From: Bacillota bacterium
GTDB taxonomy: Bacteria > Bacillota > Proteinivoracia > UBA4975 > VEMY01
DNA length: 64,000 nt
NCBI GenBank assembly: GCA_009711825.1
Contig: VEMY01000021.1
Span: forward strand, 64,976-128,975
Direction: 5' to 3'
Of the stretch, positions 1 to 30,264 are shown one piece after another; positions within the stretch are counted from its first letter, which is position 1, and each line of letters starts with the position of its first letter. The translations under genes were made by a program, and so were the position numbers. The notes under the pieces were generated by a model. The model saw only the letters and a program-made list of their open reading frames with translations. It was not told the origin of the DNA and did no database searches.

Positions 1-174
1 TCCCGCAACTTTTTACCCGGTGCTTTTAACTCTGCAAAAAAAGTCCTATTGCCCGGAATAAGAATAATCCGATCTGGCATGCCCGCCATGCCCGGGGAGG
101 TAAATTTAAACGCCCGCCATCCTCGACGCTCAATCTCTCTCTTGAACCGCCGTTCCAGTTTTTGTTCGCTCATG
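1..174 (-). CDS. VRR-NUC domain nuclease, 5' portion only (gene runs off the left edge of the window)
   Basis: Minus-strand ATG at 174 behind a GAGGTG Shine-Dalgarno. Translation MSEQKLERRFKREIERRGWRAFKFTSPGMAGMPDRIILIPG... aligns with the VRR-NUC protein at 29983..30264 (PDRLILLPGG). It sits downstream of the primase, in the same order as in prophage B. Confidence 0.7.
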
Positions 175-258
175 ATCGCACCTCGCTCTCCTTCGCATGA
201 CAGTCAGCGCCAGGGGGTAGACGGGGATGACGGGTTCCGGGCGTACACCTCCTATATA

Positions 259-292
259 TGTACTTGTACTATTGTACTTCTGTACTAGTACT
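259..292. repeat. Five closely spaced GTACT pentamers (starts 260, 266, 274, 282, 288)
   Basis: Read directly from the sequence. Spacing is 6-8 bp, immediately next to the iteron array. Confidence 0.6.
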
Positions 293-327
293 TCTTATTT
301 TTTCTTTATATAAGGAAAAAGAGAATA

Positions 328-560
328 CCCGTCTACTCCGTCTACAGCCCTGATACAACAGGCTTCTTCCCGTCACGCTACTCGTCTACGACTCGTCTAC
401 AGCCGTCTACTTTTTGCAATTTGGTTTGTCATCTTTGCACGTCTTCCGCGTCTACTCCGTCCACCCAAGAACTGGCAAGTGTCAAAAACCCGTCTACCTC
501 GTCCACCCCGTCTACGTCTACCCGTCTACCTTTTGACACCCGTCTACCTTAGTCGTCTAC
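328..560. repeat. Iteron-like array, about 15 copies of (C/T)CGTC(T/C)AC; putative origin of replication of element A
   Basis: Direct repeats CGTCTAC/CGTCCAC start at 330, 339, 383, 394, 404, 449, 458, 491, 500, 509, 515, 523, 541 and 554. They lie just 3' of the primase gene and 5' of VRR-NUC. Confidence 0.65.
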
Positions 561-561
561 C

Positions 562-2916
562 CTAATCCATGAAATCCTCTGGTGCTGCTAGCTTAATTCC
601 CCTCCATCTTCGCGGGGTCCCTTTTCTGTATTCGATGATTTCCGGATGAATAGCTTGAAGCCGTGCGTTGAATTTTGCCTGGTTTAGCGGATGGTTGCCC
701 CACTGGAAGCACATGTTGCGATAGGCGTCATACAGCGCTTGTTTCGCAGTCATCCCTTCTGGGTCCAGCTCACAACATTCATCCAGAAAGCGGGCCACTG
801 TGTCGCTGGCCTTGCGGTACTCCGATAGCGTCTTGGCGATGGTCCCGGATTCCGAAAACCCATCCTGCTTTTGAAGGCGCTGCAGGCCCTCCAAGGCCCG
901 CAGCAGAAATCCCGACAACGCCTCTGGAGTAAATAGGCTTTGACGCAACTTTCGATTGTTGAATTTAACTGAGAAGGGGATAAAGAGGAGTCGGCGGTGA
1001 AATCCTTCGGTGTTGTCCTTGCTGATTGGCGGTTCATTAGCACTGAAAACAAGCTTTGCCCGGTTCTTAAAACTAAAGGATCCTTTGTATTTTTCCTCGG
1101 CTCGGATTAAGTCTCCGGATACCAGTTCTTTAAACCGGCTGGAGTTTTCCAGGACTTTGTCCGGGATATCGGAATGCATGTTAGCCATCTTGCCAAAGAG
1201 GTCAGCCGAGGCGAATTTGTTCTCCGTCAGATCTTGAAAAGACACCTGTGCCACGTTATTGGTTCCTAGAAGTTGGGACAACACTTCGATGAAAGTCCCC
1301 TTACCATTGCCGCCCTCACCATAAAGAAGGAGAGCTTTTTCATATTTCATCTCTGGGGTGAGACAGTAGCCGGCCATTTCATAAAGCACTGGAATTGCAT
1401 CGGCCGGCGCCACCAGCTCCAGGAAAGTATCCATAACGGTAGTGTCTGCGTTAAGATCGTAATTGACCGGGAGTTGGACTATGGTCTTGCAGTCGGGGGT
1501 ATGGGGCAAGAGTTCCATGGTCTCTAAATGAAGCAAACCGTTCTGGACGTTGAGCAAATTGCCGGTGTTGGTTGCCTTCTCCAAAGGAATTACCTCAACC
1601 GTGTTTTTGACATAGGCAAGTGTTTCACGCACCCGGGTAATGGAAAATTCAGTCCCCAGAATTGCCGTGCATTTTTCCTGGAATAGTCGCTCGCCTTTGG
1701 TGTAGACTCCGTTAGCATAGATATACAAATCATCATTAAGCAGCATTGCATGATGTTGCTGGAGGAACCACTCTCCCAGGTAGGCAGCAACGAATTTCTT
1801 TTCCTGAAAAAAGGCTTTAACAATAGGAACGTTCTGCTGGTTATTGGTATTAAACTCGCCGGACATAATCTCCTGACGCCGAGCATGTTCTGTATCCTGA
1901 ACCTGCGGGTCTGTCTCGGCTAAAGTTAGCATTGCTTTAAATGAGTCTAGTTTCGTAATTGGGGTATCGGGTTTGGCATCTTCATCCCGGGTGCCAAATT
2001 TGTGTATCCGAACCAGGTCAAAGGCGTTGACTAGCTGGCCGCTGACGGGATCGGTGCCATGGTGGCTATAGGCGAATTTGCCGCCATCGTAGACCACCAA
2101 CCCCCCTGCAGTACTCCCAGGGATATAGGTATAACGGCCATCAGCAGCAGGAGCGTATATATCGGGCAAGAAAGTCGCTATAGCATCTGCGATATCGTAA
2201 GTAAGGCAGAAGGCGCCAATCCAACCGTCTTTTTCATAAGGATCGCCCTGCTTATCAGCAAGCTTTTTTCGGGAATTTTGGGCTCTGGATGATTCAGGCC
2301 AACGAGACTGATCTTGCCAATCCTCGTATCGAGCCAAGATTTCGTCTGGGTTAAGCCAGGACTCATCAAGATACTCAAAGATAAATTCTCCATCGGAGGC
2401 AGTGGAGGGCCAGTACATTAACCTGTGTGGTTGATAGGTTGTATCGTCAAAGAAATCTATCCCTAAATCGGCTGCAACGCGTCGGGCGATAGCTTGGTAT
2501 TCATCGGGCGTTACAGGCCGCTGGAGGGGCAGTACAAGCCTTAGACGGGGTTTCTCTGGGCAGTGCTTATGAGTGCTATACATCGCGCACGCGCACCCTA
2601 GGAGGGTTTCTACAGAGGCCCATAAATCGCCCTGGGCATAATCCGCATCGAGGGTGAGTACCTGCCGATTAATAACGCTATCAGCTTTGCGACGTCCGTT
2701 TTTTAGTTGGCCCCCAACAAAGCCTCCGACGTCTTTGATGTCGTCCTGCTCTGGCTTGGACAGCTGCAAATATTCAGCATAAGTTTCTCCTGTCCGGGAT
2801 GTCTGACTTAATCTGTCAACTAGTTTGGACCAGGAGATATCTTTATTCTTCCAGTGGGTTTCTTTCCGATTACGGCCGGTTGCTATCCTTAGTTGGTCGT
2901 CGTGCTGTATGAACAC
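562..2916 (-). CDS. Phage/plasmid primase-helicase (P4 / VirE / D5-type, P-loop NTPase)
   Basis: 784 aa. Walker A motif GEGGNGKGT. Similar in length and sequence to the protein at 27424..29757 (WKNKDISW, VVYDG, MYWPS motifs). Confidence 0.85.
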   Translation of the reverse strand: MFIQHDDQLRIATGRNRKETHWKNKDISWSKLVDRLSQTSRTGETYAEYLQLSKPEQDDIKDVGGFVGGQLKNGRRKADSVINRQVLTLDADYAQGDLWASVETLLGCACAMYSTHKHCPEKPRLRLVLPLQRPVTPDEYQAIARRVAADLGIDFFDDTTYQPHRLMYWPSTASDGEFIFEYLDESWLNPDEILARYEDWQDQSRWPESSRAQNSRKKLADKQGDPYEKDGWIGAFCLTYDIADAIATFLPDIYAPAADGRYTYIPGSTAGGLVVYDGGKFAYSHHGTDPVSGQLVNAFDLVRIHKFGTRDEDAKPDTPITKLDSFKAMLTLAETDPQVQDTEHARRQEIMSGEFNTNNQQNVPIVKAFFQEKKFVAAYLGEWFLQQHHAMLLNDDLYIYANGVYTKGERLFQEKCTAILGTEFSITRVRETLAYVKNTVEVIPLEKATNTGNLLNVQNGLLHLETMELLPHTPDCKTIVQLPVNYDLNADTTVMDTFLELVAPADAIPVLYEMAGYCLTPEMKYEKALLLYGEGGNGKGTFIEVLSQLLGTNNVAQVSFQDLTENKFASADLFGKMANMHSDIPDKVLENSSRFKELVSGDLIRAEEKYKGSFSFKNRAKLVFSANEPPISKDNTEGFHRRLLFIPFSVKFNNRKLRQSLFTPEALSGFLLRALEGLQRLQKQDGFSESGTIAKTLSEYRKASDTVARFLDECCELDPEGMTAKQALYDAYRNMCFQWGNHPLNQAKFNARLQAIHPEIIEYRKGTPRRWRGIKLAAPEDFMD

Positions 2917-2927: not shown

Positions 2928-4865
2928 CTAGTCTTTACGGTAATAATCACTTTCGAAACCTTCTGCGGCCAGCGGTAATTCCGGCGCCCAGGGCAAAGGC
3001 TTGCTTAGTATCTGCGCAAGTTCCAGGACAGATCCAGTGCCAATGGGTGCTTCTACAACTAGCTCATCATGCACATGTAACACTATTTCATAACCTGCGG
3101 CATCGACTTTCATAAGTGCCTCAGCCAGGCAATCTCGGGCAATAGCCTGTACTATGTTTTCTGTTAACTTGCCTCCGTACGTTTGGAGCCGCCCCCAACC
3201 GCCTGTATCTTGGCCCTCATAGGTGAGACAAGGTTTATTGAACTTAGGGTCATTCTCAATCCTGGGCCGAGCATAGGCCAAACTACGATTGGAGGGAAGT
3301 TTAACGAAAAGCATACCTGCAGAGCAAGTGAGCTCCAGCTGTCCTAAGTTAACTGTGCTTTGTTCTTGAACAGCTCGGACAGCAGCAGTTTCAACATCGC
3401 GCCAAAACTGCACTATGTTAGGATTTGATGCTCGCCAGCTACTAACCAGACCTGGCAACTCTGTTTCAGAAAGGCCCATGCTCAAAGCGCCCATCTTTAT
3501 CAGGGCTCCAGTGCTACCTTGGTAGCCTAAGGCTAATTCTGCAACCTTACCTTTTTGTCGTAGCTCTTTGTTAACCTGAGCGAGGGGAATGCCAAACATC
3601 TGGGAGGCTGACGCTTCATAGATTTTCCCATGCCCCCGGAACACATCCAGACGCCACTGTTCCCGGGCTAACCAGGATAAGATACGGGCCTCAATTGCCG
3701 AGAAATCTATAACGAGAAACCTGCAGCCGTCTTTAGGTATAAGAGCTGTGCGGACTAGCTGGGCCAGCGTGTCAGGGATACTACCAAAGAGGAGTTCTAG
3801 CTCCTCAAAGCTACCCTTCTTAAGCATGTCCCGGGCCACCTCAATATCTTTTAGGTAGTTCCGTGGGAGGTTGTGCGGTTGAATTAACCGCCCTGCCCAA
3901 CGGCCAGTCCTGCCGGCGCCGTAATAATGAAGAGTGCCCCGAATTCGGTCGTCCTGGCCGATGGTTCTCGCCATGGCCTGGTATTTTTTAATCGATGTCC
4001 GGGCTAGCTCCTGGCGCAGCTCTAACATTCTGGTAACGTTTGGATTGTCGGTGTCAGCAAGTATTTGAGCCACAGATTCTTTGGCTAGGCTGTCTGTATC
4101 AATGCCCTCAGTGTCTTTTAACCAGGTTTTTAGCTGGGCTACACTTTTAGGGTTGCTGATACCAGTCAGCCGCTTAGCTTCCTCAAGCAATTGCTTTTGA
4201 TGCCGCTTATTGCAGACGGCTGCCTGTTTAATCAGTTTACGGTCCGCCTGGATCCCTCTGTCGTTGATATGCTGATCCAATTGCCACAGACTTTGTTCGT
4301 AACCTGACATAGGATAGCGCTGTAGCTTATCGCGGATAGCGCGTTCAACAATTACGTCTTGGACGCAATATTGACGGAATTGCCCCCAACGTTCAGGATC
4401 ATGCTCGGGCAGGTTTCTTGGCCATAGATTGTTAGCCTGTTTAGTTTTTGCTGGAGTGCAAAAGTATCTAATGAGCGTGGGCCCTTTTTTATCCTTACGC
4501 TGTGCAATCTTCAGCGCTTCTGCCACCTGTCCCAGGCTGGCGGGCAGTCCAAGAGTTAAGGCGTGAGCTTGCGTGCATTGCCAATGCTCTGGAGGAAGGG
4601 TTCGGCTAAAGTGTTTTGCTAAGCATGCTCGTTCGAAAGCGGCATTAAATGCCGTTTTAACAACTTGGGGGTCAAATATGGCAGCTTGAATTTCCGTAGG
4701 TACTTTTTCACCCTGGGCTAAGTCAATTAACTGCACTGGTTGATTATCAAATGCATAGGCGAAGAGGAGGACCTGAAAGTCCTCGCTCTCCGCATAGCGA
4801 TAAGCCCCACATTTATTCAGTTCTACGCTGGAGTAGGTCTCTATATCGATCGCCAGGGTTCTCAT
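2928..4865 (-). CDS. Family A DNA polymerase (phage Pol I-like with 3'-5' exonuclease domain)
   Basis: 645 aa. Motifs IDIETYS (exonuclease), DFSAIEARILSWLA and HDELVVE (polymerase A). Paralog of 24203..26137. Confidence 0.9.
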   Translation of the reverse strand: MRTLAIDIETYSSVELNKCGAYRYAESEDFQVLLFAYAFDNQPVQLIDLAQGEKVPTEIQAAIFDPQVVKTAFNAAFERACLAKHFSRTLPPEHWQCTQAHALTLGLPASLGQVAEALKIAQRKDKKGPTLIRYFCTPAKTKQANNLWPRNLPEHDPERWGQFRQYCVQDVIVERAIRDKLQRYPMSGYEQSLWQLDQHINDRGIQADRKLIKQAAVCNKRHQKQLLEEAKRLTGISNPKSVAQLKTWLKDTEGIDTDSLAKESVAQILADTDNPNVTRMLELRQELARTSIKKYQAMARTIGQDDRIRGTLHYYGAGRTGRWAGRLIQPHNLPRNYLKDIEVARDMLKKGSFEELELLFGSIPDTLAQLVRTALIPKDGCRFLVIDFSAIEARILSWLAREQWRLDVFRGHGKIYEASASQMFGIPLAQVNKELRQKGKVAELALGYQGSTGALIKMGALSMGLSETELPGLVSSWRASNPNIVQFWRDVETAAVRAVQEQSTVNLGQLELTCSAGMLFVKLPSNRSLAYARPRIENDPKFNKPCLTYEGQDTGGWGRLQTYGGKLTENIVQAIARDCLAEALMKVDAAGYEIVLHVHDELVVEAPIGTGSVLELAQILSKPLPWAPELPLAAEGFESDYYRKD

Positions 4866-4867: not shown

Positions 4868-5551
4868 CTATCCTAAAATGTCGTCATCGTCGTCATCAGC
4901 AAAGTCGTCATTGAAATCATCTTCAGCCCGGCTCCGTCCACTAAGGGACTCACCATCAGCGAGTTTTTGAATGTTGTTTAAGCCACAAGCGATACCCCTG
5001 TTGCCAGCCGTATTATAAGGGTAGAAGTTTATGCTGACGCGCCCATAACAGCCAGAGTAAAATTCGCTCTGGTCCATGATGGGATTAAGGTCCGCATCAA
5101 CCAGGCCAGGCTTTTGTAAAGAATTTGCGTTAATGAAGTACATGCCCTGAAATTCTTCCTGGTCAGATCTTTCTTCGTCACCATCACGAACAGGTAACTT
5201 AAGATTGGCGGGAACTTTGCCACCCCATATAGAGGAGCCTTGCTGCTTGGCTGACTCAATAGCGGCTTTGATTTTCTTCAGAGTAACCTTATCGGTTTTG
5301 GGTATCAGCAAGCACAATGAGTATTTTGGGTCTGCGCCTTCGGTGATTGCAACTGGTTTAAAGACGTGTGCGTAAGCGAATCTGATTTTTTCAGTAATCA
5401 CCTTGGTGGCAGGAGCTTTTTTTGCAGTTGACATTATGGAATCCTCCTTAGTTTTAATTATCCCAACGGGACAAGGTTCATCTGGAAACAGATCATCTGG
5501 ACACTGATAACCATAGTTAGGTGCGCCTTTACAGTTAGGGGGCATGTCCAC
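4868..5551 (-). CDS. SSB-like phage replication protein (DUF2815-like) with acidic C-terminal tail
   Basis: 227 aa. C-terminus DDFNDDFADDDDDDILG. Paralog of 23556..24137. Conserved position between the polymerase and the nuclease. Confidence 0.6.
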   Translation of the reverse strand: MDMPPNCKGAPNYGYQCPDDLFPDEPCPVGIIKTKEDSIMSTAKKAPATKVITEKIRFAYAHVFKPVAITEGADPKYSLCLLIPKTDKVTLKKIKAAIESAKQQGSSIWGGKVPANLKLPVRDGDEERSDQEEFQGMYFINANSLQKPGLVDADLNPIMDQSEFYSGCYGRVSINFYPYNTAGNRGIACGLNNIQKLADGESLSGRSRAEDDFNDDFADDDDDDILG

Positions 5552-5574: not shown

Positions 5575-6732
5575 TTAACCGAAGTCCGCTTTGGCGGCTT
5601 CTGCTGAATTAAGTTCCGGGCGCCCGTCTGATTCGGGGACCAGGGTAGGTTTGCCTGGCGGCTTAATAACCAAATCGCCCAGCTGTAGGCCAAACTCTTT
5701 TTTCCCCAACAGCTTTTCCATGGCAGTGATGCCCAGTAACTTCTTCTGGAAAATCTGGTCTTCGGTATAACCTTCTGCTGATAGTTTTGTGGCCACTGCC
5801 GCCTCATCAGCATATTTCCGGTTGCTTCGCCCTTCGACAAGTTTATAGCCAGGGAATTTCACTCCATGTTTCTCGGCTTGCTCCAGGGCGTAGGCTTGGA
5901 TATCTGACGCCCACTTTTGTAGCTGTTCAGCCTGAGTTAGAATTTCTGCAATCTCTGGGACGTCCAACAATGGTGGCTTCCTAAATTCATGCTTAGCTAG
6001 TTCAAGGTTGGCCTTTACCCGGGCGCGGCATGTAGCCTTAGCTTTACAAAACCGGCAGTGATCACCCGCAACAAACTCGCCTTTGCCGCTAGCCGCCAAC
6101 TTGGCCTTGGGGGCCACGTAATCAGTGGCCCAGGCCAATAGCTTGTCCACGGATAATTCCTCCGTGGAGATGTTATCCAGACGGGGCTGAATGATGGTCA
6201 TGCGCACTGTCTGAATATCGTAAAGGATAGAGTAAGCGGCATAGGCACCCAAGCCATACAAGCGCATCTGGGAGTTGTTTTCGGCAGACACGGGAACCCC
6301 TTTTCCATACTTGAGGTCTATAATCTCGACCGTGTTGTCAGCAATAATTACGACGTCTCCCGTGCCAAAACCGTCAGGGACCCAGTTTGAATAATCAAGG
6401 CGTTGCTCTAATAGCGCGACAGTATCACAGCAGCGCACTTTGGCCGCCATGAAGATTTCGGACACTTGATCCACGTATTGCTGGATATAGTCCTGCATCT
6501 CCTGGGAGTAGAACTCGTGTTTTTGCAGGGCCAAAAGCTTGGTTTTATAGACGCTTGGTTTAGTGGTGTTGGCTACAGCCCGCGACAATAGCAACTCCGC
6601 CAGTTCGTGGGCAAATGTCCCTTCAGCTGCGTACTCACTCTGCGCATCAGGAAACTGTTCTTCCAGCTTGGCGCTGGGCGGGCAAGCCAGCCACCGGGCT
6701 GATCCGGATGCGCTTAACAGTGCATGTTTCAT
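5575..6732 (-). CDS. PD-(D/E)XK nuclease, Cas4/RecB-like (DUF2800-like) with 1+3 Cys cluster
   Basis: 385 aa. GTGDVVII...EIIDLKYGKG gives the D...ExK motif. N-terminal Cys plus CRFCKAKATC. Paralog of 22417..23553. Confidence 0.7.
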   Translation of the reverse strand: MKHALLSASGSARWLACPPSAKLEEQFPDAQSEYAAEGTFAHELAELLLSRAVANTTKPSVYKTKLLALQKHEFYSQEMQDYIQQYVDQVSEIFMAAKVRCCDTVALLEQRLDYSNWVPDGFGTGDVVIIADNTVEIIDLKYGKGVPVSAENNSQMRLYGLGAYAAYSILYDIQTVRMTIIQPRLDNISTEELSVDKLLAWATDYVAPKAKLAASGKGEFVAGDHCRFCKAKATCRARVKANLELAKHEFRKPPLLDVPEIAEILTQAEQLQKWASDIQAYALEQAEKHGVKFPGYKLVEGRSNRKYADEAAVATKLSAEGYTEDQIFQKKLLGITAMEKLLGKKEFGLQLGDLVIKPPGKPTLVPESDGRPELNSAEAAKADFG

Positions 6733-7034
6733 GCGATCTTCTCAGCCCGGGCTAAAACCTCCGCGTAGCGCTCAGCAGGTATCTCTGTAAGCTTGCTTGC
6801 GCCGAAGTCAGTGATGATCTGTTTAACCTCAGCTTGCTTACCGTTTTGAGATAGGTTAGCGAGTTTCGCTCGAACTTGCTCCAGGGATACAGTTTGCTTT
6901 GGTTCCTGCTCAACGGTCGATGATGTGGAAGTTGAAACCGGCGGCGCAGACACTGCTTGTCCTTCCAGTGCTTTTGCTAGTGCATATATGGCCTCAGAAA
7001 GCTGGGGGGCGAGAATCGTAATTTCTATTTGCAT
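6729..7034 (-). CDS. Hypothetical phage protein (paralog of 22097..22420)
   Basis: 101 aa. Shares the QVRAxLA...PAxYAxxLAxAE motif with the prophage B gene at the same syntenic position. Confidence 0.5.
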   Translation of the reverse strand: MQIEITILAPQLSEAIYALAKALEGQAVSAPPVSTSTSSTVEQEPKQTVSLEQVRAKLANLSQNGKQAEVKQIITDFGASKLTEIPAERYAEVLARAEKIA

Positions 7035-7626: not shown

Positions 7627-7639
7627 TTACATCCTCCTC

Positions 7640-7668
7640 TTGGCAAAATCGTGGTAATGGGGTATAAT
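7640..7668 (+). promoter_or_regulatory. Near-consensus sigma-A-type promoter on the plus strand (TTGGCA-N17-TATAAT), antisense to the early operon
   Basis: TTGGCA at 7640-7645, a 17-nt spacer, TATAAT at 7663-7668. Confidence 0.4.
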
Positions 7669-7682
7669 CTGAGTGATTGTTT

Positions 7683-7707: not shown

Positions 7708-7709
7708 AT

Positions 7710-8167: not shown

Positions 8168-8178
8168 GGTACACCTCC

Positions 8179-21895: not shown

Positions 21896-21909
21896 CAAGG
21901 TGATTCCAA

Positions 21910-23553: not shown

Positions 23554-23555
23554 CC

Positions 23556-24137
23556 ATGTCAAACACAGCAAACAGAGTAAATACCGGGGCAAAATTAAGC
23601 CCCACCAAGGTTATCACAGGCATTGTTCGTCTGAGCTATGCCAACGTCCACGAGCCGAAGTCTATCAATGGCGGGACACCCAAGTACAGCGTGTCTCTTA
23701 TCATTCCCAAAAGTGACACCAAGACCATCGCAGCCATCAATGCCGCAGTGGATGCAGCTATCGAAGAAGGGCGCGGTAAGTTCGGCGGCAAAATTCCAAA
23801 CAAGGCCGCTTTGAAACTCCCGCTCCGCGATGGTGACATTGATCGTCCGGACGACGAAGCCTATGCAAACAGCTACTTCGTAAACGCCAACAGCAACTCC
23901 GCACCGGAGATTGTGGACAAGGCGCTTAACCCCATCATGAGCCGCTCGGAGGTTTACTCCGGTGTGTATGCAAGGGTCAGTGTGAACTTCTACGCTTTTA
24001 ATTCCAACGGTAATCGTGGCATCGCCTGCGGACTGGGGAATATCCAAAAAATCCGCGATGGAGAGCCGCTTGGCGGCAAGACCAGTGCAGCTGACGATTT
24101 CACCTCGGATTATGACGGCGAAGATTTTCTGGAATAA
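23556..24137 (+). CDS. SSB-like replication protein (DUF2815-like), acidic C-terminus
   Basis: 193 aa. Paralog of 4868..5551. C-terminus ADDFTSDYDGEDFLE. Confidence 0.6.
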   Translation: MSNTANRVNTGAKLSPTKVITGIVRLSYANVHEPKSINGGTPKYSVSLIIPKSDTKTIAAINAAVDAAIEEGRGKFGGKIPNKAALKLPLRDGDIDRPDDEAYANSYFVNANSNSAPEIVDKALNPIMSRSEVYSGVYARVSVNFYAFNSNGNRGIACGLGNIQKIRDGEPLGGKTSAADDFTSDYDGEDFLE

Positions 24138-24202
24138 CAGCAAAAACAACCATGGATGGGGCGGCGGGGCAACTTGCCGCCCTTTTCCGCTATGGAGGGC
24201 GT

Positions 24203-26137
24203 ATGAGAAATATTAGCATCGATGTTGAAACGTATAGCGATCGTGATCTATCCAAGTGCGGTGTCTATAAGTATGCTGAGTCACCTGATTTTGAAATTCT
24301 GCTGTTCGGTTACGCCGTTGACGGAGGAAAGGTACATGTCATTGATTTGGCAAACGGCGAAACATTGCCGGAGGAAATCAAGGAAGCTTTGATAGATAAA
24401 AATGTCACGAAATGGGCCTTCAACGCTCAGTTTGAGCGGATTTGCTTATCGCGTTATTTGGAAATATGGCTGGGAGCGGAATCATGGCGATGCACGATGA
24501 TCTGGGCAGCGTACATGGGACTTCCCCTATCTCTGGAAGGCGCAGGTGCGGTGCTCGGATTGGAAAAGCAGAAACTGAAGGAAGGAAAAGACCTCATCCG
24601 ATATTTCTCCGTGTCCTGCAAACCTACCAAGGCTAACGGCGGACGCACACGGAATCTCCCCACCGACGCGCCGGACAAATGGGAGCAGTTCAAAGCATAT
24701 AACGCCCGTGATGTGGAGACCGAAATAGCGATTCAGGTGCGACTTCAAAAGTTCCCCGTGCCGGAGGACGAATGGCAGAACTATATTCTTGATCAGCATA
24801 TCAATGACAGGGGCATCCGGCTAGACATGGGTCTGGTTACAAAAGCAATCCGATGTGAAGAGCGGGCAAAGGCTGAACTTACCCGATTAATGAAGGAAAT
24901 GACCGCACTAGACAACCCCAACTCGGTCGCGCAGATGAAGGCGTGGCTGGCCGATAACGGTCTGGAGACAGACACCCTTGGTAAGGCGGCGGTTAAGGAA
25001 CTGCTGAAAACAGCACCGGAGAATCTGGCAGAGGTGTTGACACTCAGGCAATCCTTGGCCAAGAGTAGCGTGAAGAAATATACGGCGATGGAGAGTGTCG
25101 TCTGCTCAGACAGCAGGGCCAGAGGGCTCTTGCAGTTTTATGGTGCAAACCGAACCGGGCGCTGGGCGGGTAGGTTGATTCAGGTGCAGAACCTGCCCCA
25201 GAACCATCTGCCGGATTTGGCACAGGCTCGAAGCCTTGTGAAAAGCGGCAACTTCGAAATGCTGGAAGCCCTCTATGATTCCGTTCCCGGTGTCCTGTCC
25301 GAACTCATCCGTACAGCCTTTGTTCCGAAACCGGGCTGTAATTTCATTGTAGCCGATTTCAGTGCGATTGAAGCTCGTGTCATAGCATGGCTTGCTGGGG
25401 AAGTGTGGCGCAATGAGGTGTTTGCTACTCACGGTAAGATCTATGAAGCGTCGGCAAGTCAGATGTTCCAAGTGCCCATTGAGGAAATCACCAAGGGCAG
25501 CCCGCTCCGGCAAAAGGGTAAGATTGCGGAGCTCGCCCTTGGCTACGGTGGCTCGGTAGGCGCATTAAAAACCATGGGTGCATTGGATATGGGTGTCACG
25601 GAAGCAGAACTACAACCGTTGGTGAATGCTTGGAGAACTGCCAATCCCAACATTGTACGGCTATGGTGGGACGTGGACAAGGCGGCCATGACCGCAGTTC
25701 GGGAACGGACAACAATAGACACCCACGGTATCCGTTTTGAGTGCAAAAGCGGAATGCTGTTTATAACCCTGCCTTCCGGCAGGCGGCTTGCCTATGTGAA
25801 GCCTAATATCGGTCAGAACCGCTTTGGAGGTGACGCTGTTACCTACGAAGGGGTGGGTGCGACGAAAAAATGGGAGCGCATCGAATCCTATGGTCCCAAG
25901 TTTGTGGAAAACATCGTGCAGGCAATTTCCCGTGACATCCTCTGCTATGCCATGCGGAGACTGGATAATATGGGACTCTCCATTGTTATGAGCGTTCACG
26001 ATGAGGTAGTCATTGAAGCATCACCAGATGTGTCGCTTGAGTCTGTTTGTAGCTGTATGGCAGAAACCCCTCCCTGGGCAAAAGGACTTTTGCTTCGTGC
26101 CGATGGGTTCTTGTGCCCATTTTATAAAAAAGATTAA
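24203..26137 (+). CDS. Family A DNA polymerase
   Basis: ATG at 24203 (Shine-Dalgarno GGAGGG). IDVETYSD, DFSAIEARVIAWLA, HDEVVIE. Paralog of 2928..4865. Confidence 0.9.
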   Translation: MRNISIDVETYSDRDLSKCGVYKYAESPDFEILLFGYAVDGGKVHVIDLANGETLPEEIKEALIDKNVTKWAFNAQFERICLSRYLEIWLGAESWRCTMIWAAYMGLPLSLEGAGAVLGLEKQKLKEGKDLIRYFSVSCKPTKANGGRTRNLPTDAPDKWEQFKAYNARDVETEIAIQVRLQKFPVPEDEWQNYILDQHINDRGIRLDMGLVTKAIRCEERAKAELTRLMKEMTALDNPNSVAQMKAWLADNGLETDTLGKAAVKELLKTAPENLAEVLTLRQSLAKSSVKKYTAMESVVCSDSRARGLLQFYGANRTGRWAGRLIQVQNLPQNHLPDLAQARSLVKSGNFEMLEALYDSVPGVLSELIRTAFVPKPGCNFIVADFSAIEARVIAWLAGEVWRNEVFATHGKIYEASASQMFQVPIEEITKGSPLRQKGKIAELALGYGGSVGALKTMGALDMGVTEAELQPLVNAWRTANPNIVRLWWDVDKAAMTAVRERTTIDTHGIRFECKSGMLFITLPSGRRLAYVKPNIGQNRFGGDAVTYEGVGATKKWERIESYGPKFVENIVQAISRDILCYAMRRLDNMGLSIVMSVHDEVVIEASPDVSLESVCSCMAETPPWAKGLLLRADGFLCPFYKKD

Positions 26138-26152
26138 AAGAAATTTTTCTAT

Positions 26153-26220
26153 ACCGTCCGAATCCGTCCTTTCCTGTGGCTTATACCGAAGGCCACAACA
26201 AAACTGAGCCTTCGGAAAGG
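26153..26220 (+). promoter_or_regulatory. Copy 2 of the conserved intergenic element
   Basis: ACCGTCCGAAT...TGGCTTATACC...stem CCGAAGGC (26186-26193) / GCCTTCGG (26208-26215)...GAAAGG, 10 nt before the antirepressor ATG. Confidence 0.6.
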
Positions 26221-26229
26221 ACAAACCAT

Positions 26230-27015
26230 ATGAACGAACTAAAAATTTTCTCCTACGAGGGGAAAGAGGTCAGAACGATTCAGAGAAATGGGGAGCCGTG
26301 GTGGGTGCTGAAAGATGTATGTGATGTATTAGGATTGACGACACCTACCAGAGTAGCTGAGCGGCTTGACGAAGATGAAGTGAGTCAGACTCATCTCACC
26401 GACGCAATCGGCAGACAACAGGAAACTCTTATTGTCAGTGAGAGCGGGCTTTACAATGTTATCCTGCGCTCTGATAAGCCGGAAGCCAAGAAGTTCAAAC
26501 GCTGGGTTACTCACGAGGTTCTACCGCAAATCCGCAAACATGGCGCATACATCACCACCTCCAAGCTGGAAGAGATCATGAATGATCCCGATTCCTGGAT
26601 TAAGCTGCTTACAGCCCTTAAGAAAGAGCGGCAGGAAAAGGAACGACTCCAGCTTCAGGCCGCTGAAGACAGGCCCAAAGTGGTCTTTGCCGATGCGGTG
26701 TCGGTCTCGGAAGGCACCATCCTTATTGGCGAGCTGGCAAAAATCCTCAAAGGCAATGGAATAGAAATTGGGCAGAACCGCTTGTTTGAAAGGCTCCGAC
26801 AGGACGGCTTCCTCATCAAGCGCAAAGGCACCGATTACAATGCACCGACCCAGAAGGCAATGGAACTGGGGCTGTTTAGGGTCAAGGAAACCGCCATCAC
26901 CCATTCAGACGGACATGTCACCATTTCCAAGACCACTAAGGTGACCGGCAAAGGACAGCAGTATTTTATCAATTATTTTCTCGGTGGAGGTGCGAATGGC
27001 CATGGACAGGCGTAA
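26230..27015 (+). CDS. Phage antirepressor (Bro-N N-terminal domain plus KilA-C-like C-terminal domain)
   Basis: ATG at 26230. N-terminus MNELKIFSYEGKEVRTIQRNGEPWWVLKDVCDVLGL is a Bro-N signature. Confidence 0.75.
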   Translation: MNELKIFSYEGKEVRTIQRNGEPWWVLKDVCDVLGLTTPTRVAERLDEDEVSQTHLTDAIGRQQETLIVSESGLYNVILRSDKPEAKKFKRWVTHEVLPQIRKHGAYITTSKLEEIMNDPDSWIKLLTALKKERQEKERLQLQAAEDRPKVVFADAVSVSEGTILIGELAKILKGNGIEIGQNRLFERLRQDGFLIKRKGTDYNAPTQKAMELGLFRVKETAITHSDGHVTISKTTKVTGKGQQYFINYFLGGGANGHGQA

Positions 27016-27427
27016 CAGCGAAGGATACCCCGACCCCACCGCCGCAGAAGCCCTGACAAACGTGGCTCTGGAGGAAAAAGCAAAAGTAAAGCAATACCGC
27101 CCGCTTGTCTATATTTGCTCGCCCTTTGCGGGGGATATTGACTACAATACAAGCCGTGCCCGCGGTTATTGCCGGTTTGCGGTCAGCGAGGGGTGTATTC
27201 CCCTTGCACCGCACCTCCACTACCCACAGTTCATGGATGACACCGATAAGGAAAGCCGTGAGCTTGGGCTATTTTTTGCACTGATTCTCCTTACCAAATG
27301 TGACACGGTGTGGGTGTTCGGCAGCCGGATTTCGGATGGAATGACCCGAGAAATTGCCAAAGCCAGGAGATGCGGGATTCCGATCCGGTACTTTAACGAG
27401 AAATGCCAGGAGGTGCAAGGCACATGA
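26984..27427 (+). CDS. DUF4406-like phage protein (nucleoside 2-deoxyribosyltransferase-like fold)
   Basis: 147 aa. YICSPFAGDIDYN...VWVFGSRISDGMTREIAKARRCGIPIRYF. Confidence 0.5.
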   Translation: MEVRMAMDRRNSEGYPDPTAAEALTNVALEEKAKVKQYRPLVYICSPFAGDIDYNTSRARGYCRFAVSEGCIPLAPHLHYPQFMDDTDKESRELGLFFALILLTKCDTVWVFGSRISDGMTREIAKARRCGIPIRYFNEKCQEVQGT

Positions 27428-29757
27428 AAATAGCGGTGGGTAACAGTCGTATGGATAAGAAGTGGAAAAACAAGGACATTTCATGGGAGGAATTCAAGAA
27501 CACTGTCCGCACCACAAAACGCACGACGGAGACAGTGTCCGAGTTTCGCAAAATGAGCAAGCCCCAGCAGGATGAGGTCAAAGACATCGGCGGTTTCGTG
27601 GGCGGTGCTCTGCGGGAAGGAAAGCGCAGGAACGGTTACGTTATATGCCGATCCCTGCTGACCCTCGACATGGACTATGCTACCTCCGACATCTGGGGGC
27701 AGATAGAAGCGCTTTATGATTGGTCGTGCTGTGTCTACTCTACCCATAAGCATACACCGGAAGCACCTCGCCTGCGGCTGGTCGTTCCCCTTGCCCGGGA
27801 GGTCAGCGAAGATGAATATCCAGCATTGGGACGAATGGTAGCAAAGGAAATCGGTATTGATTTGTTTGACGACACGACATACGAACCCTCACGGCTGATG
27901 TATTGGCCATCCACACCCTCTGACGGCGAGTTTGTGTTTTGTGAAAAGGAAGGCGAGCTGCTTGATCCCGATGTTTACCTCTCCAAATACGCTGATTGGC
28001 GGGACACCTCCATGTGGCCTACCTCGAAACGGCAGTCGGAGGTGCTGGAGCGCAGGCTAAAACAGCAGCAGGACCCCCTTGCCAAAGGTGGTGTAGTCGG
28101 CGCCTTCTGCCGGGCTTATTCCATAGAGGATGCAATCGAAGCATTCCTTTCAGATGTGTACGAGCCTTCGACTATGGCAGGCCGCTATGATTATATTCCC
28201 GCCGACAGTTCGGCAGGTGTGGTGGTCTACGACGGTAAGTTCGCCTACAGTCACCACGCTACAGACCCGGTGTGTGGAAAGCTGCTCAATGCCTTTGACC
28301 TGGTGCGGCTCCATAAATTCAGTGAACTTGATGAAAAGGCATCTTTTAGAGCCATGTCCGATTTCGCTGTTAAGGATGAGCGTGTTAAGGTGCAGCTTGC
28401 CGAGGAGCGCCGGGCGCAGGCGGAAGCCGAATTTACCGATGAAGACAACTGGCAGAGCCAGCTTGAACTAGATAAAACGGGTGCTGTAAAGGACACGCTT
28501 ACCAATATCTCCATCATCCTGCGATTTGACCCAAATCTAAAGTCCATTGTGTTCAACCAGTTTAAGAACATGATCGACGTCATCGGCGAACTCCCCTGGC
28601 CCCAGGTGAAGCCCGGCTGGAGTGATACCGACCTTGCCTGCGCCAAGCTGTACTTCGAGCGCAGCTATGGGATTTGGTCACCAACTAAATTTAAGGATGC
28701 CCTGCTGGGCGTAGTTTCCGTGGAGCGGCTGTATCATCCGGTCAAGGAATACCTTGGCAAGCTATCCTGGGATGGCACCGAGCGGCTGGACACCCTGCTC
28801 ATCGACTATCTAGGCGCAGATGACACGCCCTATGTCCGGGCAGTGACAAGAAAAACCTTGGTGGCGGCAGTTGCCCGCATCTATCAGCCGGGAATAAAGT
28901 TTGATTCCATCCTTGTGCTAAACGGTGCACAGGGTATCGGTAAATCCACGCTCTTTGCCCGGTTGGGTGGCCAGTGGTACTCCGATTCCCTTGCTATATC
29001 CGATATGAAGGATAAGACTGCGCCGGAGAAGCTGCAGGGCTATTGGATATTGGAGCTGGGCGAACTGGCGGGTATTAAGAAAATGGATGTGGAGACGGTA
29101 AAATCCTTCATTACCCGTGTAGACGACAAATATCGACAATCCTACGGTGTCACAGTGGAAAGCCATCCGCGCTCCTGCATTATCGTCGGCACCACCAACA
29201 GCGATGGTGGATTCTTAAGGGACATTACTGGGAACCGCCGCTTCTGGCCGGTACGGGTACAGGGCGCGGGCAAGTACCACGCATGGGAACTGACCGATGT
29301 TGACCAAATTTGGGCTGAAGCCATTGAACGCTATAACGAGGGTGAGGAGTTATTCCTTAAAGGTAGCCTTGCGGAGGAAGCCGTCACCCAGCAGCGCGAT
29401 GCCATGGAGGGTGACGACCGTGAAGGTCTGGTAGCTGAATACCTCGATACTTTGTTGCCGGAAAACTGGGACGGCATGGACTTATATGCCCGCCGGAATT
29501 TCTTAAATGGCGGTGAATTTGGAGGAGATACGCCCAAAGGAACGCTGCGGCGTAAACAAGTCTGCATTATGGAGATATGGTGCGAGTGTTTTTGCAAAAA
29601 CCGCGAAGCCATCAAGAAGGCTGATTCATACGAGATTGAGGGCATTCTGGGCAAGATCGGTGGTTGGGAGAAGTTCACTGGTAACAAGACGGGCAAAAAG
29701 AATCTGTCCCTTTATGGTCCCCAGCGGGTGTTCGTCCGCTCCGAAAAGGAGGTGTAG
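27424..29757 (+). CDS. Phage/plasmid primase-helicase (VirE / P4-type)
   Basis: ATG at 27424 (Shine-Dalgarno AGGAGGTG). P-loop NGAQGIGKST. Paralog of 562..2916. Confidence 0.85.
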   Translation: MKIAVGNSRMDKKWKNKDISWEEFKNTVRTTKRTTETVSEFRKMSKPQQDEVKDIGGFVGGALREGKRRNGYVICRSLLTLDMDYATSDIWGQIEALYDWSCCVYSTHKHTPEAPRLRLVVPLAREVSEDEYPALGRMVAKEIGIDLFDDTTYEPSRLMYWPSTPSDGEFVFCEKEGELLDPDVYLSKYADWRDTSMWPTSKRQSEVLERRLKQQQDPLAKGGVVGAFCRAYSIEDAIEAFLSDVYEPSTMAGRYDYIPADSSAGVVVYDGKFAYSHHATDPVCGKLLNAFDLVRLHKFSELDEKASFRAMSDFAVKDERVKVQLAEERRAQAEAEFTDEDNWQSQLELDKTGAVKDTLTNISIILRFDPNLKSIVFNQFKNMIDVIGELPWPQVKPGWSDTDLACAKLYFERSYGIWSPTKFKDALLGVVSVERLYHPVKEYLGKLSWDGTERLDTLLIDYLGADDTPYVRAVTRKTLVAAVARIYQPGIKFDSILVLNGAQGIGKSTLFARLGGQWYSDSLAISDMKDKTAPEKLQGYWILELGELAGIKKMDVETVKSFITRVDDKYRQSYGVTVESHPRSCIIVGTTNSDGGFLRDITGNRRFWPVRVQGAGKYHAWELTDVDQIWAEAIERYNEGEELFLKGSLAEEAVTQQRDAMEGDDREGLVAEYLDTLLPENWDGMDLYARRNFLNGGEFGGDTPKGTLRRKQVCIMEIWCECFCKNREAIKKADSYEIEGILGKIGGWEKFTGNKTGKKNLSLYGPQRVFVRSEKEV

Positions 29758-29905
29758 GCATATGCTCAACATTCCAGCTATGCCAAAACCCCATACCATG
29801 GGCAGGGCCGCAAGCCCCATATTTACCAGCCTTCTTGCTTTGCCTGTTCCCATTGTGCCTAAAAATCATCTATTAAATGTTGTAGTTATAAGTAATAAAG
29901 GGATA

Positions 29906-29969
29906 ATGGGCACGTGTAAGCGCGTATACGCGCGTAAGAGTTTAAAGTGCTTGGGCACAGACATGGGCA
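29906..29969. repeat. Putative origin region of prophage B: TGGGCAC at 29906, 29951 and 29963 (variant at 29797) plus a 14-bp perfect palindrome GCGCGTATACGCGC (29919-29932)
   Basis: Read directly from the sequence. Occupies the same primase-to-VRR-NUC interval as the iterons of element A. Confidence 0.5.
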
Positions 29970-29982
29970 CAAGGAGGTTCTT

Positions 29983-30264
29983 ATGCGCGAGAAACTGATA
30001 GAACAAAAACTTGTCCGGGCTGTGAAAATGGCTGGAGGGCTTGCCTTGAAGCTTGTATCGCCTGGATTTGATGGAATGCCCGACCGCCTTATACTTTTAC
30101 CCGGTGGAAAGATGGCCTTTGTCGAGGTAAAGGCCCATGGAATGAAACCCCGGCCTTTGCAGACTCGCAGGCATGGAATGCTCAAGCGGCTGGAATTTAA
30201 GGTTTATGTCATTGACGATGAAGTGCAGATTGGAGGGATACTTGATGAAATACAATCCACATGA
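29983..30264 (+). CDS. VRR-NUC domain nuclease
   Basis: ATG at 29983 (Shine-Dalgarno AAGGAGG). GMPDRLILLPGGKMAFVEVKAHG. Confidence 0.75.
   Translation: MREKLIEQKLVRAVKMAGGLALKLVSPGFDGMPDRLILLPGGKMAFVEVKAHGMKPRPLQTRRHGMLKRLEFKVYVIDDEVQIGGILDEIQST

Follow-up and report, generated by a model that had tools for sequence, protein, structure and literature searches.

The locus contains two independent temperate phages, A and B, which lie side by side at a tmRNA (ssrA) hotspot and point in opposite directions, a reading to which we give a probability of about 0.85. The same gene order is found twice in the window (the whole stretch of 64,000 nucleotides that was analysed) because the duf2800-gp2.5-polA module, which is widespread, serves both phages; the two copies arrived separately and belong to distinct branches of one very large family of phages. 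Integrases, repressors, origins and packaging genes form a separate set in each element (Table 1). The sequence-only reading had hesitated between two related prophages in inverted orientation and one composite element; the related loci that lack A uphold the former and speak against the latter. The central restriction-modification and immunity island that it described is not an entity, as it breaks up into the lysogeny module of A, a little host DNA, and the cargo and immunity genes of B. Its account of the central genes was otherwise accurate, save that it named one serine integrase and the window holds three serine recombinases, Int_A and a tandem pair in B.

Table 1. Features of the window, with position, strand (+, - or. 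for none) and supporting evidence or remarks
Feature	Position	Strand	Evidence or remarks
VRR-NUC gene, 5' part, A	3-173	-	gene runs on to the left of the window
Putative replication origin, A	214-566	.	iteron array and AT-rich palindrome at 299-320
Primase-helicase, A	562-2916	-	PF19263, PF08706, PF03288 (D5_N/DUF5906/Pox_D5)
Family A DNA polymerase PolA, A	2928-4865	-	PF00476
Enc34/T7 gp2.5-type ssDNA-binding protein (SSB), A	4868-5551	-	PF10991, E 2.5e-75; 4868-5434 in the public gene call
DUF2800 PD-(D/E)XK (Cas4-like) nuclease, A	5575-6732	-	PF10926, E 3.5e-162
Early operon of small genes, A	6729-9346	-	Pfam and pairwise comparison
Small gene, A early operon	6729-7034	-
DUF3846, A early operon	8179-8520	-
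Cro-like HTH, A early operon	9134-9346	-
Lysogeny module, A	9480-12765	+	PF01381, PF06114, PF00239+PF07508+PF13408
XRE repressor, A	9480-9812	+
ImmA-like metalloprotease, A	9932-10387	+
288-aa protein, A lysogeny module	10403-11269	+
Large serine integrase Int_A	11269-12765	+
attR core of A	12724-12735	+	CCGCCTCCACCA; equals the 3' end of tmRNA
Host spacer between A and B	12736-12916	+	region 3' of tmRNA/tRNA; two terminator-like hairpins (I2, I6)
Putative attL, B	12905-12990	+	core ATCGTTGAAAG at 12917-12927, then AGGGGTGTGCAT, then two more AATCGTT repeats
Left-end cargo, B	13144-19723	+	Pfam
Phd/YefM-like gene, B cargo	13144-13356	+
hsdM, B cargo	13346-15415	+
hsdS, B cargo	15419-16714	+
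hsdR, B cargo	16718-19723	+
Immunity and early region, B	19838-22420	+	Pfam; synteny kept in relatives
XRE, B	19838/19880-20257	+
ImmA, B	20254-20967	+
Lar-like, B	21063-21281	+
Sigma-70 region-4 protein, B	21438-21830	+
Small gene, B early region	22073-22420	+
Replication module, B	22417-31600	+	Pfam
DUF2800, B	22417-23553	+	Pfam
SSB, B	23556-24137	+	Pfam
PolA, B	24152-26137	+	Pfam
Ant (Bro-N+KilAC), B	26176-27015	+	Pfam
DUF7768, B	26984-27427	+	Pfam
Primase-helicase (VapE), B	27403-29757	+	Pfam
Repeat-rich gap, B	29758-29982	+
VRR-NUC, B	29983-30264	+	Pfam
SNF2, B	30173-31600	+	Pfam
Packaging, head, tail and lysis genes, B	32176-53409	+	Pfam; gene calls in L250/L251
Two tandem large serine recombinases, B	54172-55467, 55469-57046	+	Pfam
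Probable right-end cargo, B	57141-62186	+	Pfam; between rec2 and the right att-like site
gerA	57238-58998	+
gerAB	58995-60092	+
gerAC	60011/60089-61348	+
Small ORF	between gerAC and hsp20	+
hsp20	61728-62186	+
Putative attR, B	62281-62335	+	CAATGCACACCCCT-N23-AGGGGTGTGCATTG, core ATCGTTGAAAG at 62302-62312

Extent and cargo of prophage B

Prophage B looks complete. It would begin at ~12.92 kb, ~180 nt of host DNA past A, and its genes all run rightwards, from cargo, XRE-ImmA pair and early genes through replication, packaging, head, tail and lysis to the two serine recombinases. The structural region encodes HNH, TerS, ParB-N/N6-N4 methylase, TerL, portal, ClpP protease and capsid proteins, together with tape measure, Dit, Tal, GH18, holin and amidase. 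In IMG/VR, the recombinases have 575 relatives, and the lysis / sigma-like / SHOCT genes come before them in every case.

The recombinases stand at 54-57 kb, and B had been taken to extend to ~57 kb; its right att site most probably lies at ~62.3 kb instead, past gerABC-hsp20, which is thus most probably a second cargo block inside B and would excise with it. This placement follows from the att-like sites that match at 12.92 and 62.30 kb. Their repeats span 12917-12970 and 62301-62332, and a 16-mer and a 12-mer of the left site recur at 62301 and 62321. What attL and attR have in common is not a clean core but an imperfect 31-nt segment, in which there is a 3-nt indel, so the crossover point can only be inferred. 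The same pair of sites, in identical arrangement, flanks the L176-type element (L176/L370), in which blaI-blaR1 takes the position of gerABC ahead of the same site. At the left end, L347 departs from the window just 3' of 12990. At the right end, attR carries a hairpin (z-score -7.65) and a conserved block of ~140 nt common to L370 and L016, whose contexts otherwise differ, and five contigs stop 120-280 nt past the site. The att-like motif adjoins rec2 in 13 of 61 relatives, compared with a background frequency of 0.025 per kb.

Alternatively, B could be smaller, ending at ~57.1 kb in front of a host gerABC (with attB in the gerA promoter), starting at ~19.8 kb, past a type I RM that would be a host island next to the tRNA/tmRNA, or both. 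We consider this unlikely, but a number of arguments are in its favour: the match to Clostridium loci starts exactly at 57141, a two-recombinase prophage end lies directly upstream of every GerA relative examined (83-100% identity), the GC content of the RM genes (0.47) fits that of the apparent host (0.45-0.48), and the IMG/VR provirus call for the L176-type element begins at XRE. Against it, first, there is no att-like motif between rec2 and gerA; the motif of this family occurs 5.2 kb beyond that point, and again at the left end. Second, blaI-blaR1 precedes the same site in the L176-type element. Third, rec2-gerABC-hsp20 is 99.97% identical between two Clostridium species, where it is prophage cargo; this identity ends 380 nt past hsp20, and the right flank is a different one in each of three genomes. 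Fourth, the GC content of gerABC (0.38) is unlike that of the host and unlike that of B (0.51). Fifth, the RM genes go with the phage family even where the host flanks differ: homologues 80-91% identical adjoin B-type XRE-ImmA-replication modules in at least seven other contigs (L180-182, L190, L192, L205, L206), and the linkage recurs in L010 and L096. Other relatives of B carry C5-MTase/DpnII, ABC-3C or type III RM in the same slot, and the type I RM is part of the lineage of B. Neither an empty attB nor a free attP of B was found, which counts against the main reading; three predicted-attP scans of IMG/VR yielded nothing of use, and all GerA-bearing and all tRNA-Ala-bearing relatives already hold a B-type prophage.

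Insertion of prophage A and loci that lack it

Prophage A extends past the left edge of the window, with its left end and attL outside. It is a real phage, as judged from the TerS, TerL, SPP1-type portal and minor capsid genes that L095 shows just left of the window; the same contig supplies its SNF2 copy, also just left of the window, and its complete VRR-NUC (96 aa, a weak PF08774 match). The minus strand carries its lytic genes; the plus strand carries those for the repressor, ImmA and the integrase, next to the right end at 12735.

A large serine integrase would have inserted A at a 3' end, either that of tmRNA or that of a tRNA ending in ...CTCCACCA. The last 8 nt of the attR core also equal the 3' end of tRNA-Ala(GGC), the arm of A itself imitates the tmRNA end over 12 nt, and the match to loci without A begins at the attR core or at CTCCACCA (L176/L258/L259, L347, L048, L049, L060). 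In four of these loci (L347, L048, L049, L060), tmRNA 3' ends identified with Rfam are followed by the same downstream sequence, without A. In L176, L258, L259 and 15 further contigs, host genes lead to tRNA-Ala and then to A-less DNA that is 97.5% identical to positions 12728-21745 of the window; a mosaic breakpoint lies at 21745, within the immunity and early region of B. The spacer of ~180 nt follows either tmRNA or tRNA-Ala where A is missing. In all, at least 18 related contigs and the four tmRNA loci keep the same downstream DNA without A, and these show that it moves independently. The comparison with related genomes that had been proposed has found A precisely missing at its junction.

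In L048, L049 and L060, the relatives are reversed relative to tmRNA, an observation that counts against the reading as two prophages.

Only one contig, Logan SRR9198955_442, has A adjoining B, which also counts against two neighbouring prophages, and their adjacency might be an artefact, a chimeric path through the metagenome graph. The contig comes from a Logan assembly of a sequencing run, Int_A is recorded on one contig only, and A-less variants of the locus are common. We nevertheless hold an artefact to be very improbable: the junction is coherent, running from the integrase gene to the att core at the tmRNA/tRNA 3' end and on to the normal downstream DNA of that gene, and the contig is 143 kb long with consistent flanks. 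Hardly any room is left for a single composite mobile element that would carry A, B and the RM/immunity segment together. Its parts are contiguous on that contig and both arms face away from a common middle, but it is largely refuted by the precise absence of A from the loci above, by B-type phages without A in hundreds of IMG/VR contigs, by the separate integrases, repressors, origins and packaging genes, and by the conserved host spacer.

Two lineages of one replication module

That the same replication module occurs twice was borne out by Pfam and pairwise BLASTP. Both arms have the order small gene, DUF2800, Enc34/gp2.5-type SSB, PolA, primase-helicase, repeat-rich gap, VRR-NUC and SNF2, with amino-acid identities of 44-55% across the shared genes: 51% over 383 aa for DUF2800 (E 2e-121), 52% over 184 aa for SSB, 49% over 648 aa for PolA, 44% over 79 aa for VRR-NUC and 55% over 404 aa for SNF2 (the A copy taken from L095). 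The primases share 50% identity in the N-terminal 357 aa only (residues 8-362), which hold the common primase domain, and their C-terminal helicase halves are of different families, D5-type in A and VapE-type in B. The small genes upstream are homologous, as had been proposed, at 48% identity restricted to the C-terminal 52 aa (E 7e-12). In both phages, duf2800-gp2.5-polA is thus accompanied by a primase-helicase, VRR-NUC and SNF2.

The view that this is no recent duplication also holds, given these identities and the fact that each module is nearer to other phages. The closest DUF2800 relatives are 66% identical for A (in IMG/VR) and 75-97% for B, and a survey of DUF2800 loci found 24 nearer to A and 116 nearer to B. 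On these sequence comparisons, the modules of A and B are separate lineages. An old inverted segmental duplication in one ancestral prophage, diverged since, would fit the same order and the fairly uniform 44-55% identity over seven genes, but is scarcely credible when each copy matches other phages much better (66% and up to 97%) than its counterpart (51%), the primase C-terminal halves come from different families, the flanking lysogeny, packaging and head genes are unrelated, and no DNA identity remains.

Two consequences drawn earlier from the repeated arrangement do not survive. The arms are not substrates for inversion or deletion because the longest identical DNA that they share is 14 nt, with only short patches at 66-76% identity. 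Cross-immunity is unlikely because the repressors are only ~20% identical; the ImmA proteins cannot be aligned. The lysogeny of each phage is probably held by its own, unrelated XRE repressor and ended by its own ImmA-type protease, which would inactivate it. Likewise, the repeat-rich gap that separates the primase and VRR-NUC genes in each phage is probably where its replication begins. In A, the iteron CCGTCTAC has 14 copies (at most one mismatch) at 217-560, and all eight exact copies in the whole window are inside this gap. The gap of B has ATGGG six times, against 0.41 expected, an AT-rich stretch and a 10-nt palindrome; these repeats are weaker than those of A, yet non-random. The two origins are probably not interchangeable because the repeats and the helicase halves of the primases differ.

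The antirepressor and the neighbouring gene of B (read as DUF4406, here DUF7768) had been regarded as acquired by B. They are not recent gains and are typical of the lineage: 46 of 80 relatives of B have the identical order, and among the relatives that the protein of A retrieved, the most frequent arrangement likewise has DUF7768 between PolA and primase.

Relation to known systems

The 3' ends of tmRNA (ssrA) and tRNA genes are integration hotspots, where tyrosine integrases are more usual. The locus resembles other cases of polylysogeny at tmRNA in that the att core of A is the last 12 nt of the gene, a second prophage sits ~180 nt downstream, and cargo genes gather at the prophage ends; it differs in that A and B use large serine recombinases, a tandem pair in B, and in that the site of B is downstream of the gene and not inside it. 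Pairs of ImmR/ImmA-type repressor and anti-repressor protease are found in ICEBs1 and many Firmicutes phages. Both A and B likewise have an HTH_3 repressor gene directly followed by a Peptidase_M78 (IrrE/ImmA) gene, but the two pairs, for which cleavage of the repressor is presumed, are unrelated in sequence, and they differ in direction, divergent in A and co-directional in B with respect to the lytic operon.

The replication module is already known: PMC8093625 (citing Steczkiewicz 2012) describes the duf2800-gp2.5-polA phage module, and Enterobacter phage Enc34 carries such a module (PMC5686142). The locus has the same order of DUF2800 PD-(D/E)XK nuclease, DUF2815/Enc34 gp2.5-like SSB and family A polymerase, with primase, VRR-NUC and helicase nearby and no classical ssb gene seen in the module. 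There is essentially no difference, except that the module occurs here twice in one locus, in two lineages with D5 and VapE helicase domains, and that the slot between PolA and primase is variable, empty in A and filled by Ant and DUF7768 in B.

Defence and moron cargo is common at prophage ends, e.g. in the P2/P4 hotspots. B similarly has a variable slot by its att site, with type I RM here and C5-MTase/DpnII, ABC-3C, type III RM, GmrSD or McrBC in relatives. What sets B-type phages apart is that attP seems to be flanked by a slot on either side, and that the other slot has cargo unrelated to defence: gerABC-hsp20 here, and in the L176-type phage blaI-blaR1.

In Bacillus, the spoVA2mob/gerX transposon is another mobile element of a spore-former that carries dormancy-related genes. 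Phage-borne sporulation genes have been described (Schwartz et al. 2022 and 2023; PMC9429907, PMC10294663), and ger genes are absent from the main text of PMC10294663. The locus is alike in kind, but what it carries is an entire germinant receptor operon of the GerA family, with three genes and a promoter of its own. Two related prophages back-to-back beside a tmRNA gene, a classic insertion hotspot, are ordinary; the spore-germination receptor operon that seems to be the cargo of one of them is not.

Replication modules of A and B

Both arms of the locus carry the replication genes that an earlier sequence-only reading had listed for them, as borne out by ORF listing and Pfam scans (see the table). 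Here, A is the prophage running off the left window edge, B the prophage to its right, and L-numbers are related contigs or loci compared with the window. The paired proteins of A and B are 44-55% identical (pairwise alignment, E down to 1e-121), with alignments confined to the last 52 residues in the small genes and to the N-terminal 357 residues in the primases, whose helicase halves differ in family (D5_N/DUF5906/Pox_D5 in A vs VapE in B). In the 9.4 kb beyond the left window edge (L095), A continues through VRR-NUC to an SNF2 helicase, 55% identical to that of B, which extends the shared synteny by one gene beyond what was first seen. In both prophages, DUF2800 is adjacent to a DUF2815/Enc34 gp2.5-like SSB and followed by a family A DNA polymerase, an order kept in 160 related loci. 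This duf2800-gp2.5-polA module has already been described as widespread in phages of Firmicutes and Gram-negatives (PMC8093625), and the module described for Enc34 also combines primase, polymerase, VRR-NUC, and helicase (PMC5686142).

Features of the window and of the loci compared with it (positions in the window unless a locus is named)
Feature	Position	Strand	Basis or remark
A: VRR-NUC gene start	173-3	-	after 390-nt gap past primase-helicase
A: primase-helicase (D5_N/DUF5906/Pox_D5)	562-2916	-	Pfam
A: PolA (PF00476)	2928-4865	-	Pfam
A: Enc34/gp2.5-type SSB (PF10991, E 2.5e-75)	4868-5551	-	Pfam
A: DUF2800 nuclease (PF10926, E 3.5e-162)	5575-6732	-	Pfam
A: small gene	6729-7034	-	ORF listing/Pfam
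A: Cro-like HTH	9134-9346	-	Pfam
A: XRE	9480-9812	+	Pfam
A: ImmA-like protease	9932-10387	+	Pfam
A: 288-aa protein	between ImmA-like protease and integrase	+	ORF
A: large serine integrase (PF00239, PF07508, PF13408)	11269-12765	+	Pfam
Phd-like gene (weak)	13144-13356	+	Pfam; overlaps hsdM
hsdM, hsdS, hsdR	end at 19723	+	Pfam
B: XRE	19838-20257	+	Pfam
B: ImmA	20254-20967	+	Pfam
B: small gene	22073-22420	+	ORF listing/Pfam
B: DUF2800 (PF10926, E 1.7e-163)	22417-23553	+	Pfam
B: SSB (PF10991, E 2.7e-78)	23556-24137	+	Pfam
B: PolA (PF00476)	24152-26137	+	Pfam
B: antirepressor	26176-27015	+	Pfam
B: DUF7768	26984-27427	+	Pfam
B: primase-helicase (VapE)	27403-29757	+	Pfam; 226-nt gap after
B: VRR-NUC	29983-30264	+	Pfam
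B: SNF2	30173-31600	+	Pfam
B: right part, siphovirus-like set (HNH, TerS, ParB-N/N6-N4 methylase, TerL, portal, ClpP protease, capsid, tape measure, Dit, Tal, GH18, holin, amidase)		+	Pfam
B: two tandem large serine recombinases (PF00239, PF07508, PF13408)	ending 57046	+	Pfam
gerABC, small ORF, hsp20	57141-62186		GC 0.38 vs 0.51 for B
gerA-gerAB-gerAC loci	window 57141-62186; L006 9899-15738; L004 128-7344; L254; L255		between recombinase genes and right prophage end
Left-slot loci	window 13144-19723; L099 1-5200; L101 1-7200; L124/L156; L347 400-9300; L181 16260-20550; L190 16300-21200		differing defence systems, including GmrSD and McrBC

Judged from their sequences, the modules of A and B are not related by duplication, in line with the initial proposal of two related prophages without a recent duplication. 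The best relatives of the DUF2800 protein are up to 66% identical for A and 75-97% for B, vs 51% between the two; the 166 related loci include 24 that are clearly nearer to A and 116 nearer to B. A frequent order among relatives is small-DUF2800-SSB-PolA-(Ant)-(DUF7768)-primase-SNF2, where Ant is the antirepressor. The two genes between PolA and primase, first taken for an acquisition by B, are typical of its lineage and not a recent gain: the exact gene order of B occurs in 46 of the 80 loci retrieved with it. Of the loci retrieved with A, 28 have DUF7768 alone at this place and about 26 have PolA followed directly by the primase, the state of A. Gene content thus differs at this junction among relatives, making it a variable slot. 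The GenBank phage collection contained no near-identical phage.

Two consequences raised earlier for the inverted arrangement are not supported. First, the arms lack near-identical inverted DNA that could serve as substrate for inversion or deletion: no exact match exceeds 14 nt, and identity in the best patches is 66-76% across about 100-200 nt (top patch 76% over 103 nt); therefore, homologous recombination between them is not realistic. Second, cross-immunity is unlikely, because the XRE repressors are only about 20% identical, within the HTH, and pairwise comparison found no alignment between the ImmA proteins. That the antirepressor of B acts on other repressors is conceivable, as speculation.

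The gaps next to the primase genes are putative replication origins, given their position and repeat structure. The gap in A holds 14 copies of CCGTCTAC (at most 1 mismatch, 217-560), a significant cluster outside which the 64-kb window has none of its 8 exact copies, and an AT-rich palindrome at 299-320. The cluster is weaker in B, where ATGGG occurs 6 times (0.41 expected) alongside an AT-rich stretch and a short palindrome.

Insertion site of A

A has the integrase and XRE/ImmA genes of a prophage, virion genes in the DNA just left of the window (TerS, TerL, portal, and minor capsid in L095), and a right junction absent from relatives; its left end and attL lie outside the window. Its integrase is one of three large serine recombinases in the window, all with Resolvase, Recombinase, and zinc-ribbon domains; the others are the tandem pair of B, and the earlier reading had named a single one, in the central segment. 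A is on record on one contig only (Logan assembly SRR9198955_442, 143.6 kb).

The comparison with genomes lacking one element, proposed at the outset, found A precisely missing at its junction. A metagenome search with HsdM gave L176, and a flanking host gene gave L258, L259, and 15 more contigs. All have host genes (serA-like dehydrogenase, rhodanese, cobT, radical-SAM enzyme, and response-regulator diguanylate cyclase), then tRNA-Ala(GGC), then DNA 97.5% identical to window 12728-21745, with no A-like sequence. The identity starts at CTCCACCA, the tRNA 3' end, and the look-up via the GGDEF gene gave A-less contigs only. Four other loci (L347, L048, L049, and L060) have a tmRNA 3' end (Rfam RF00023, E 1e-14 to 1e-21) directly followed by the same downstream sequence, AATAATCTACCATCTATTGATAAA..., and the arm of A, ...GACCCCGCCGCCTCCACCA, has 12 nt in common with the tmRNA end. 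Together with the A-less loci, this match argues that A is a prophage whose serine integrase targets a tmRNA/tRNA 3' end, the target in this genome being presumably one or the other gene. At 12727-12765 the integrase frame crosses the att core, which leaves its last ten codons (NNLPSIDKK and the stop) host-encoded, and the C-terminus of the integrase would change upon excision.

The occurrence of identical downstream sequence after tRNA-Ala(GGC) (L176 9315-9390, L258, L259) and after the tmRNA 3' end (L347 1-92, L048, L049, L060) suggests past recombination at the common ...TCCACCA end.

Ends and body of B

B combines recombinases, a repressor, and a complete virion and lysis set with flanking att-like repeats, within which the exact crossover is a prediction. 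A repeat search found a 16-mer, AATCGTTGAAAGATTG, common to 12955 and 62301 and a 12-mer, AGGGGTGTGCAT, common to 12933 and 62321. The same pair of sites bounds the L176-type element, which shares the left arm of B and occurs in A-less genomes (left, L176 9571-9625; right, L370 13770-13821, after blaI-blaR1). The right site forms a perfect inverted repeat, 15 bp long, around ATCGTTGAAAG (z-score -7.65), and five contigs end 120-280 nt past it. In 13 of 61 relatives, the motif TGCACNCCC/GGGNGTGCA follows the second recombinase gene within 600 nt (background 0.025 per kb); in relatives with intervening extra genes, the distance is 2.2-7.4 kb. The comparison with the L176-type element, the shared repeats, and the motif counts place the putative attL at about 12905-12990 and the putative attR at about 62281-62335. 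It is likely that B spans these about 49 kb, with gerABC, the small ORF, and hsp20 inside as right-end cargo. The predicted attP of B would be ...ATGCACACCCCTTCTTTAAAATCGTTGAAAG joined to TTAGCAGGGGTGTGCATATTCTGGG, and its attB ...TTTCACAGGGGTTATCGTTGAAAG joined to ATTGCTATAGGGGTGTGCATTGTATC; exact and gapped patterns gave only known contigs in IMG/VR, with no empty attB or free attP.

Two alternative placements of the right end were set aside. In one, gerA (57238 onwards) is host flank, a view first suggested by the start of Clostridium homology at 57141; all GerA relatives examined already had a recombinase pair upstream, which gerABC being cargo would explain. In the other, the 9-nt repeat TATTTCGGC (12860, 57147) is the att core; about 0.3 chance matches are expected, the sole match of the attP 20-mer predicted from it is an unrelated T4-like contig, and the L176-type element has the left site but no such core on the right.

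Within B, a sharp mosaic breakpoint lies at 21745 (L176 18408; L350), inside a sigma-70 region-4-like gene. Left of it the L176-type phage has 97% identity to B; rightwards the replication proteins of the two are only 63-69% identical, and the recombinases of that phage, 83% identical to those of B, are followed by blaI-blaR1 instead of gerA. Besides the restriction-modification (RM) methylase, B carries an orphan ParB-N plus N6/N4 DNA methyltransferase gene (33234-34475) between TerS and TerL.

Other relatives differ around the recombinases. Two MAG contigs (L001 1-116, L002 1-1157) are 97% identical to the window rightwards from 54597; their first recombinase gene is cut at codon 144 and joined to an unrelated AT-rich 1.15-kb segment with a ParB-like gene fragment, in which Rfam matched no group II intron. 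They look like a deletion remnant that keeps the second recombinase and gerABC. In two IMG/VR contigs (L027 11940-14316, L021 11687-13000), the recombinase pair is immediately followed by another one that points the opposite way, suggesting two prophages of this recombinase family inserted tail-to-tail. Some relatives of the same recombinase family lie next to tmRNA in opposite orientation, recombinase end proximal (L048 11575-11960, L049 14700-15256, L060 6063-6451); the near-palindromic core AATCGTTGAAAGATT could explain this. No terminal repeats were found in the provirus contigs.

Cargo at the left end of B

The central island of the sequence-only reading dissolves into the lysogeny module of A, a short host spacer, and the cargo and immunity genes of B. 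The cargo is a type I RM system: HsdM (PF02384/PF12161), HsdS with two target-recognition domains (PF01420, two stretches), and HsdR (PF04313/PF18766/PF22679). The Phd-like label of the preceding gene covers the fold only: PF02604 scores 21.6 bits against a gathering cut-off of 29.8, the adjoining gene is hsdM, and no partner toxin gene is present. Two further samples (L010, L096) also have RM linked to the immunity genes of B, with 93-98% identity. Homologues (HsdM 80-91%) adjoin B-type XRE-ImmA-replication modules in L180, L181, L182, L190, L192, L205, and L206, with outer flanks of GmrSD, McrBC, or two tRNA-Ser then host genes. Upstream of XRE/ImmA, other relatives have a C5 methylase with a DpnII-like gene, ABC-3C (CTD11/DUF2326), or a type III-like RM. 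As content at this position varies by relative, the left end of B holds a variable cargo slot. GC was dropped as a host-or-phage test for RM, whose 0.47 falls within the host range of about 0.45-0.48, as was the candidate B operator TTAGCGAACA (12996, 19841, 21023), whose window-wide count is not above chance.

Phd-like/hsdMSR is divergent from XRE-ImmA in the seven HsdM-homologue loci vs co-directional in the window (13144-20257); the whole cassette was therefore flipped at some point. Moreover, loci with 97% identity elsewhere reach only 67-74% in hsdS (window 15421-15954; L096 346-1641; L176 12075-12617), because one central stretch was replaced. This resembles the exchange of a target-recognition domain, by which the specificity of the RM would be altered.

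A germinant receptor operon as probable right-end cargo

The genes to the right of the recombinases encode the three subunits of a GerA-family germinant receptor (PF03323, PF03845, PF25198 plus PF05504), accompanied in some copies by hsp20. Comparisons with Clostridium independently back their status as cargo. First, the segment from the second recombinase gene through gerABC to hsp20 is 99.97% identical over 7.2 kb between C. manihotivorum (L006) and C. homopropionicum (L004), the identity ending about 380 nt past hsp20. Second, L006, L254, and L255 have 13.5 kb of tail, lysis, recombinase, and gerABC genes in common at 90-97% identity, and the right flanks of L006, L004, and L254 all differ from one another. 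Third, the Clostridium cassette stops at a defined end block. Homology between the window and the Clostridium loci starts at 57141; puzzlingly, this start nucleotide of the cassette is shared by two phage lineages with recombinases only about 40% identical. With a probability of roughly 0.6, B and a separate Clostridium prophage lineage carry a complete GerA-type operon (plus hsp20) as cargo, with its own promoter, between the recombinases and the att site.

The cassette start is conserved (window 57141-57170; also L006, L254, L255) as GAATTATTT[C/A]GGCAAAAAAGGG[C/T]ATAAT, which we take to resemble a forespore promoter of the sigma-G/F type. The main text of a paper on phages and sporulation (PMC10294663) leaves germinant receptors as phage cargo unmentioned.

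Meaning of the arrangement

In itself the arrangement adds one more example of what is known, a described module at a well-known insertion hotspot. The inverted pair first reported matters little: the module is common, the two phages have no DNA identity in common that could drive rearrangement, and the repressors are unrelated. Our analysis has yielded 1) a corrected locus map, with a tmRNA-type att core for A, a 180-nt host spacer, a B of about 49 kb, and cargo slots on both sides of the B att site; 2) a catalogue of the slot contents of relatives; and 3) an indication of a germinant receptor operon on prophages of two lineages, the single item worth follow-up. If this is true, lysogeny would add an extra germinant receptor to host spores and the phage could influence when its dormant host wakes. 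Germination would then be one more step of dormancy open to manipulation by the phages of spore-formers.
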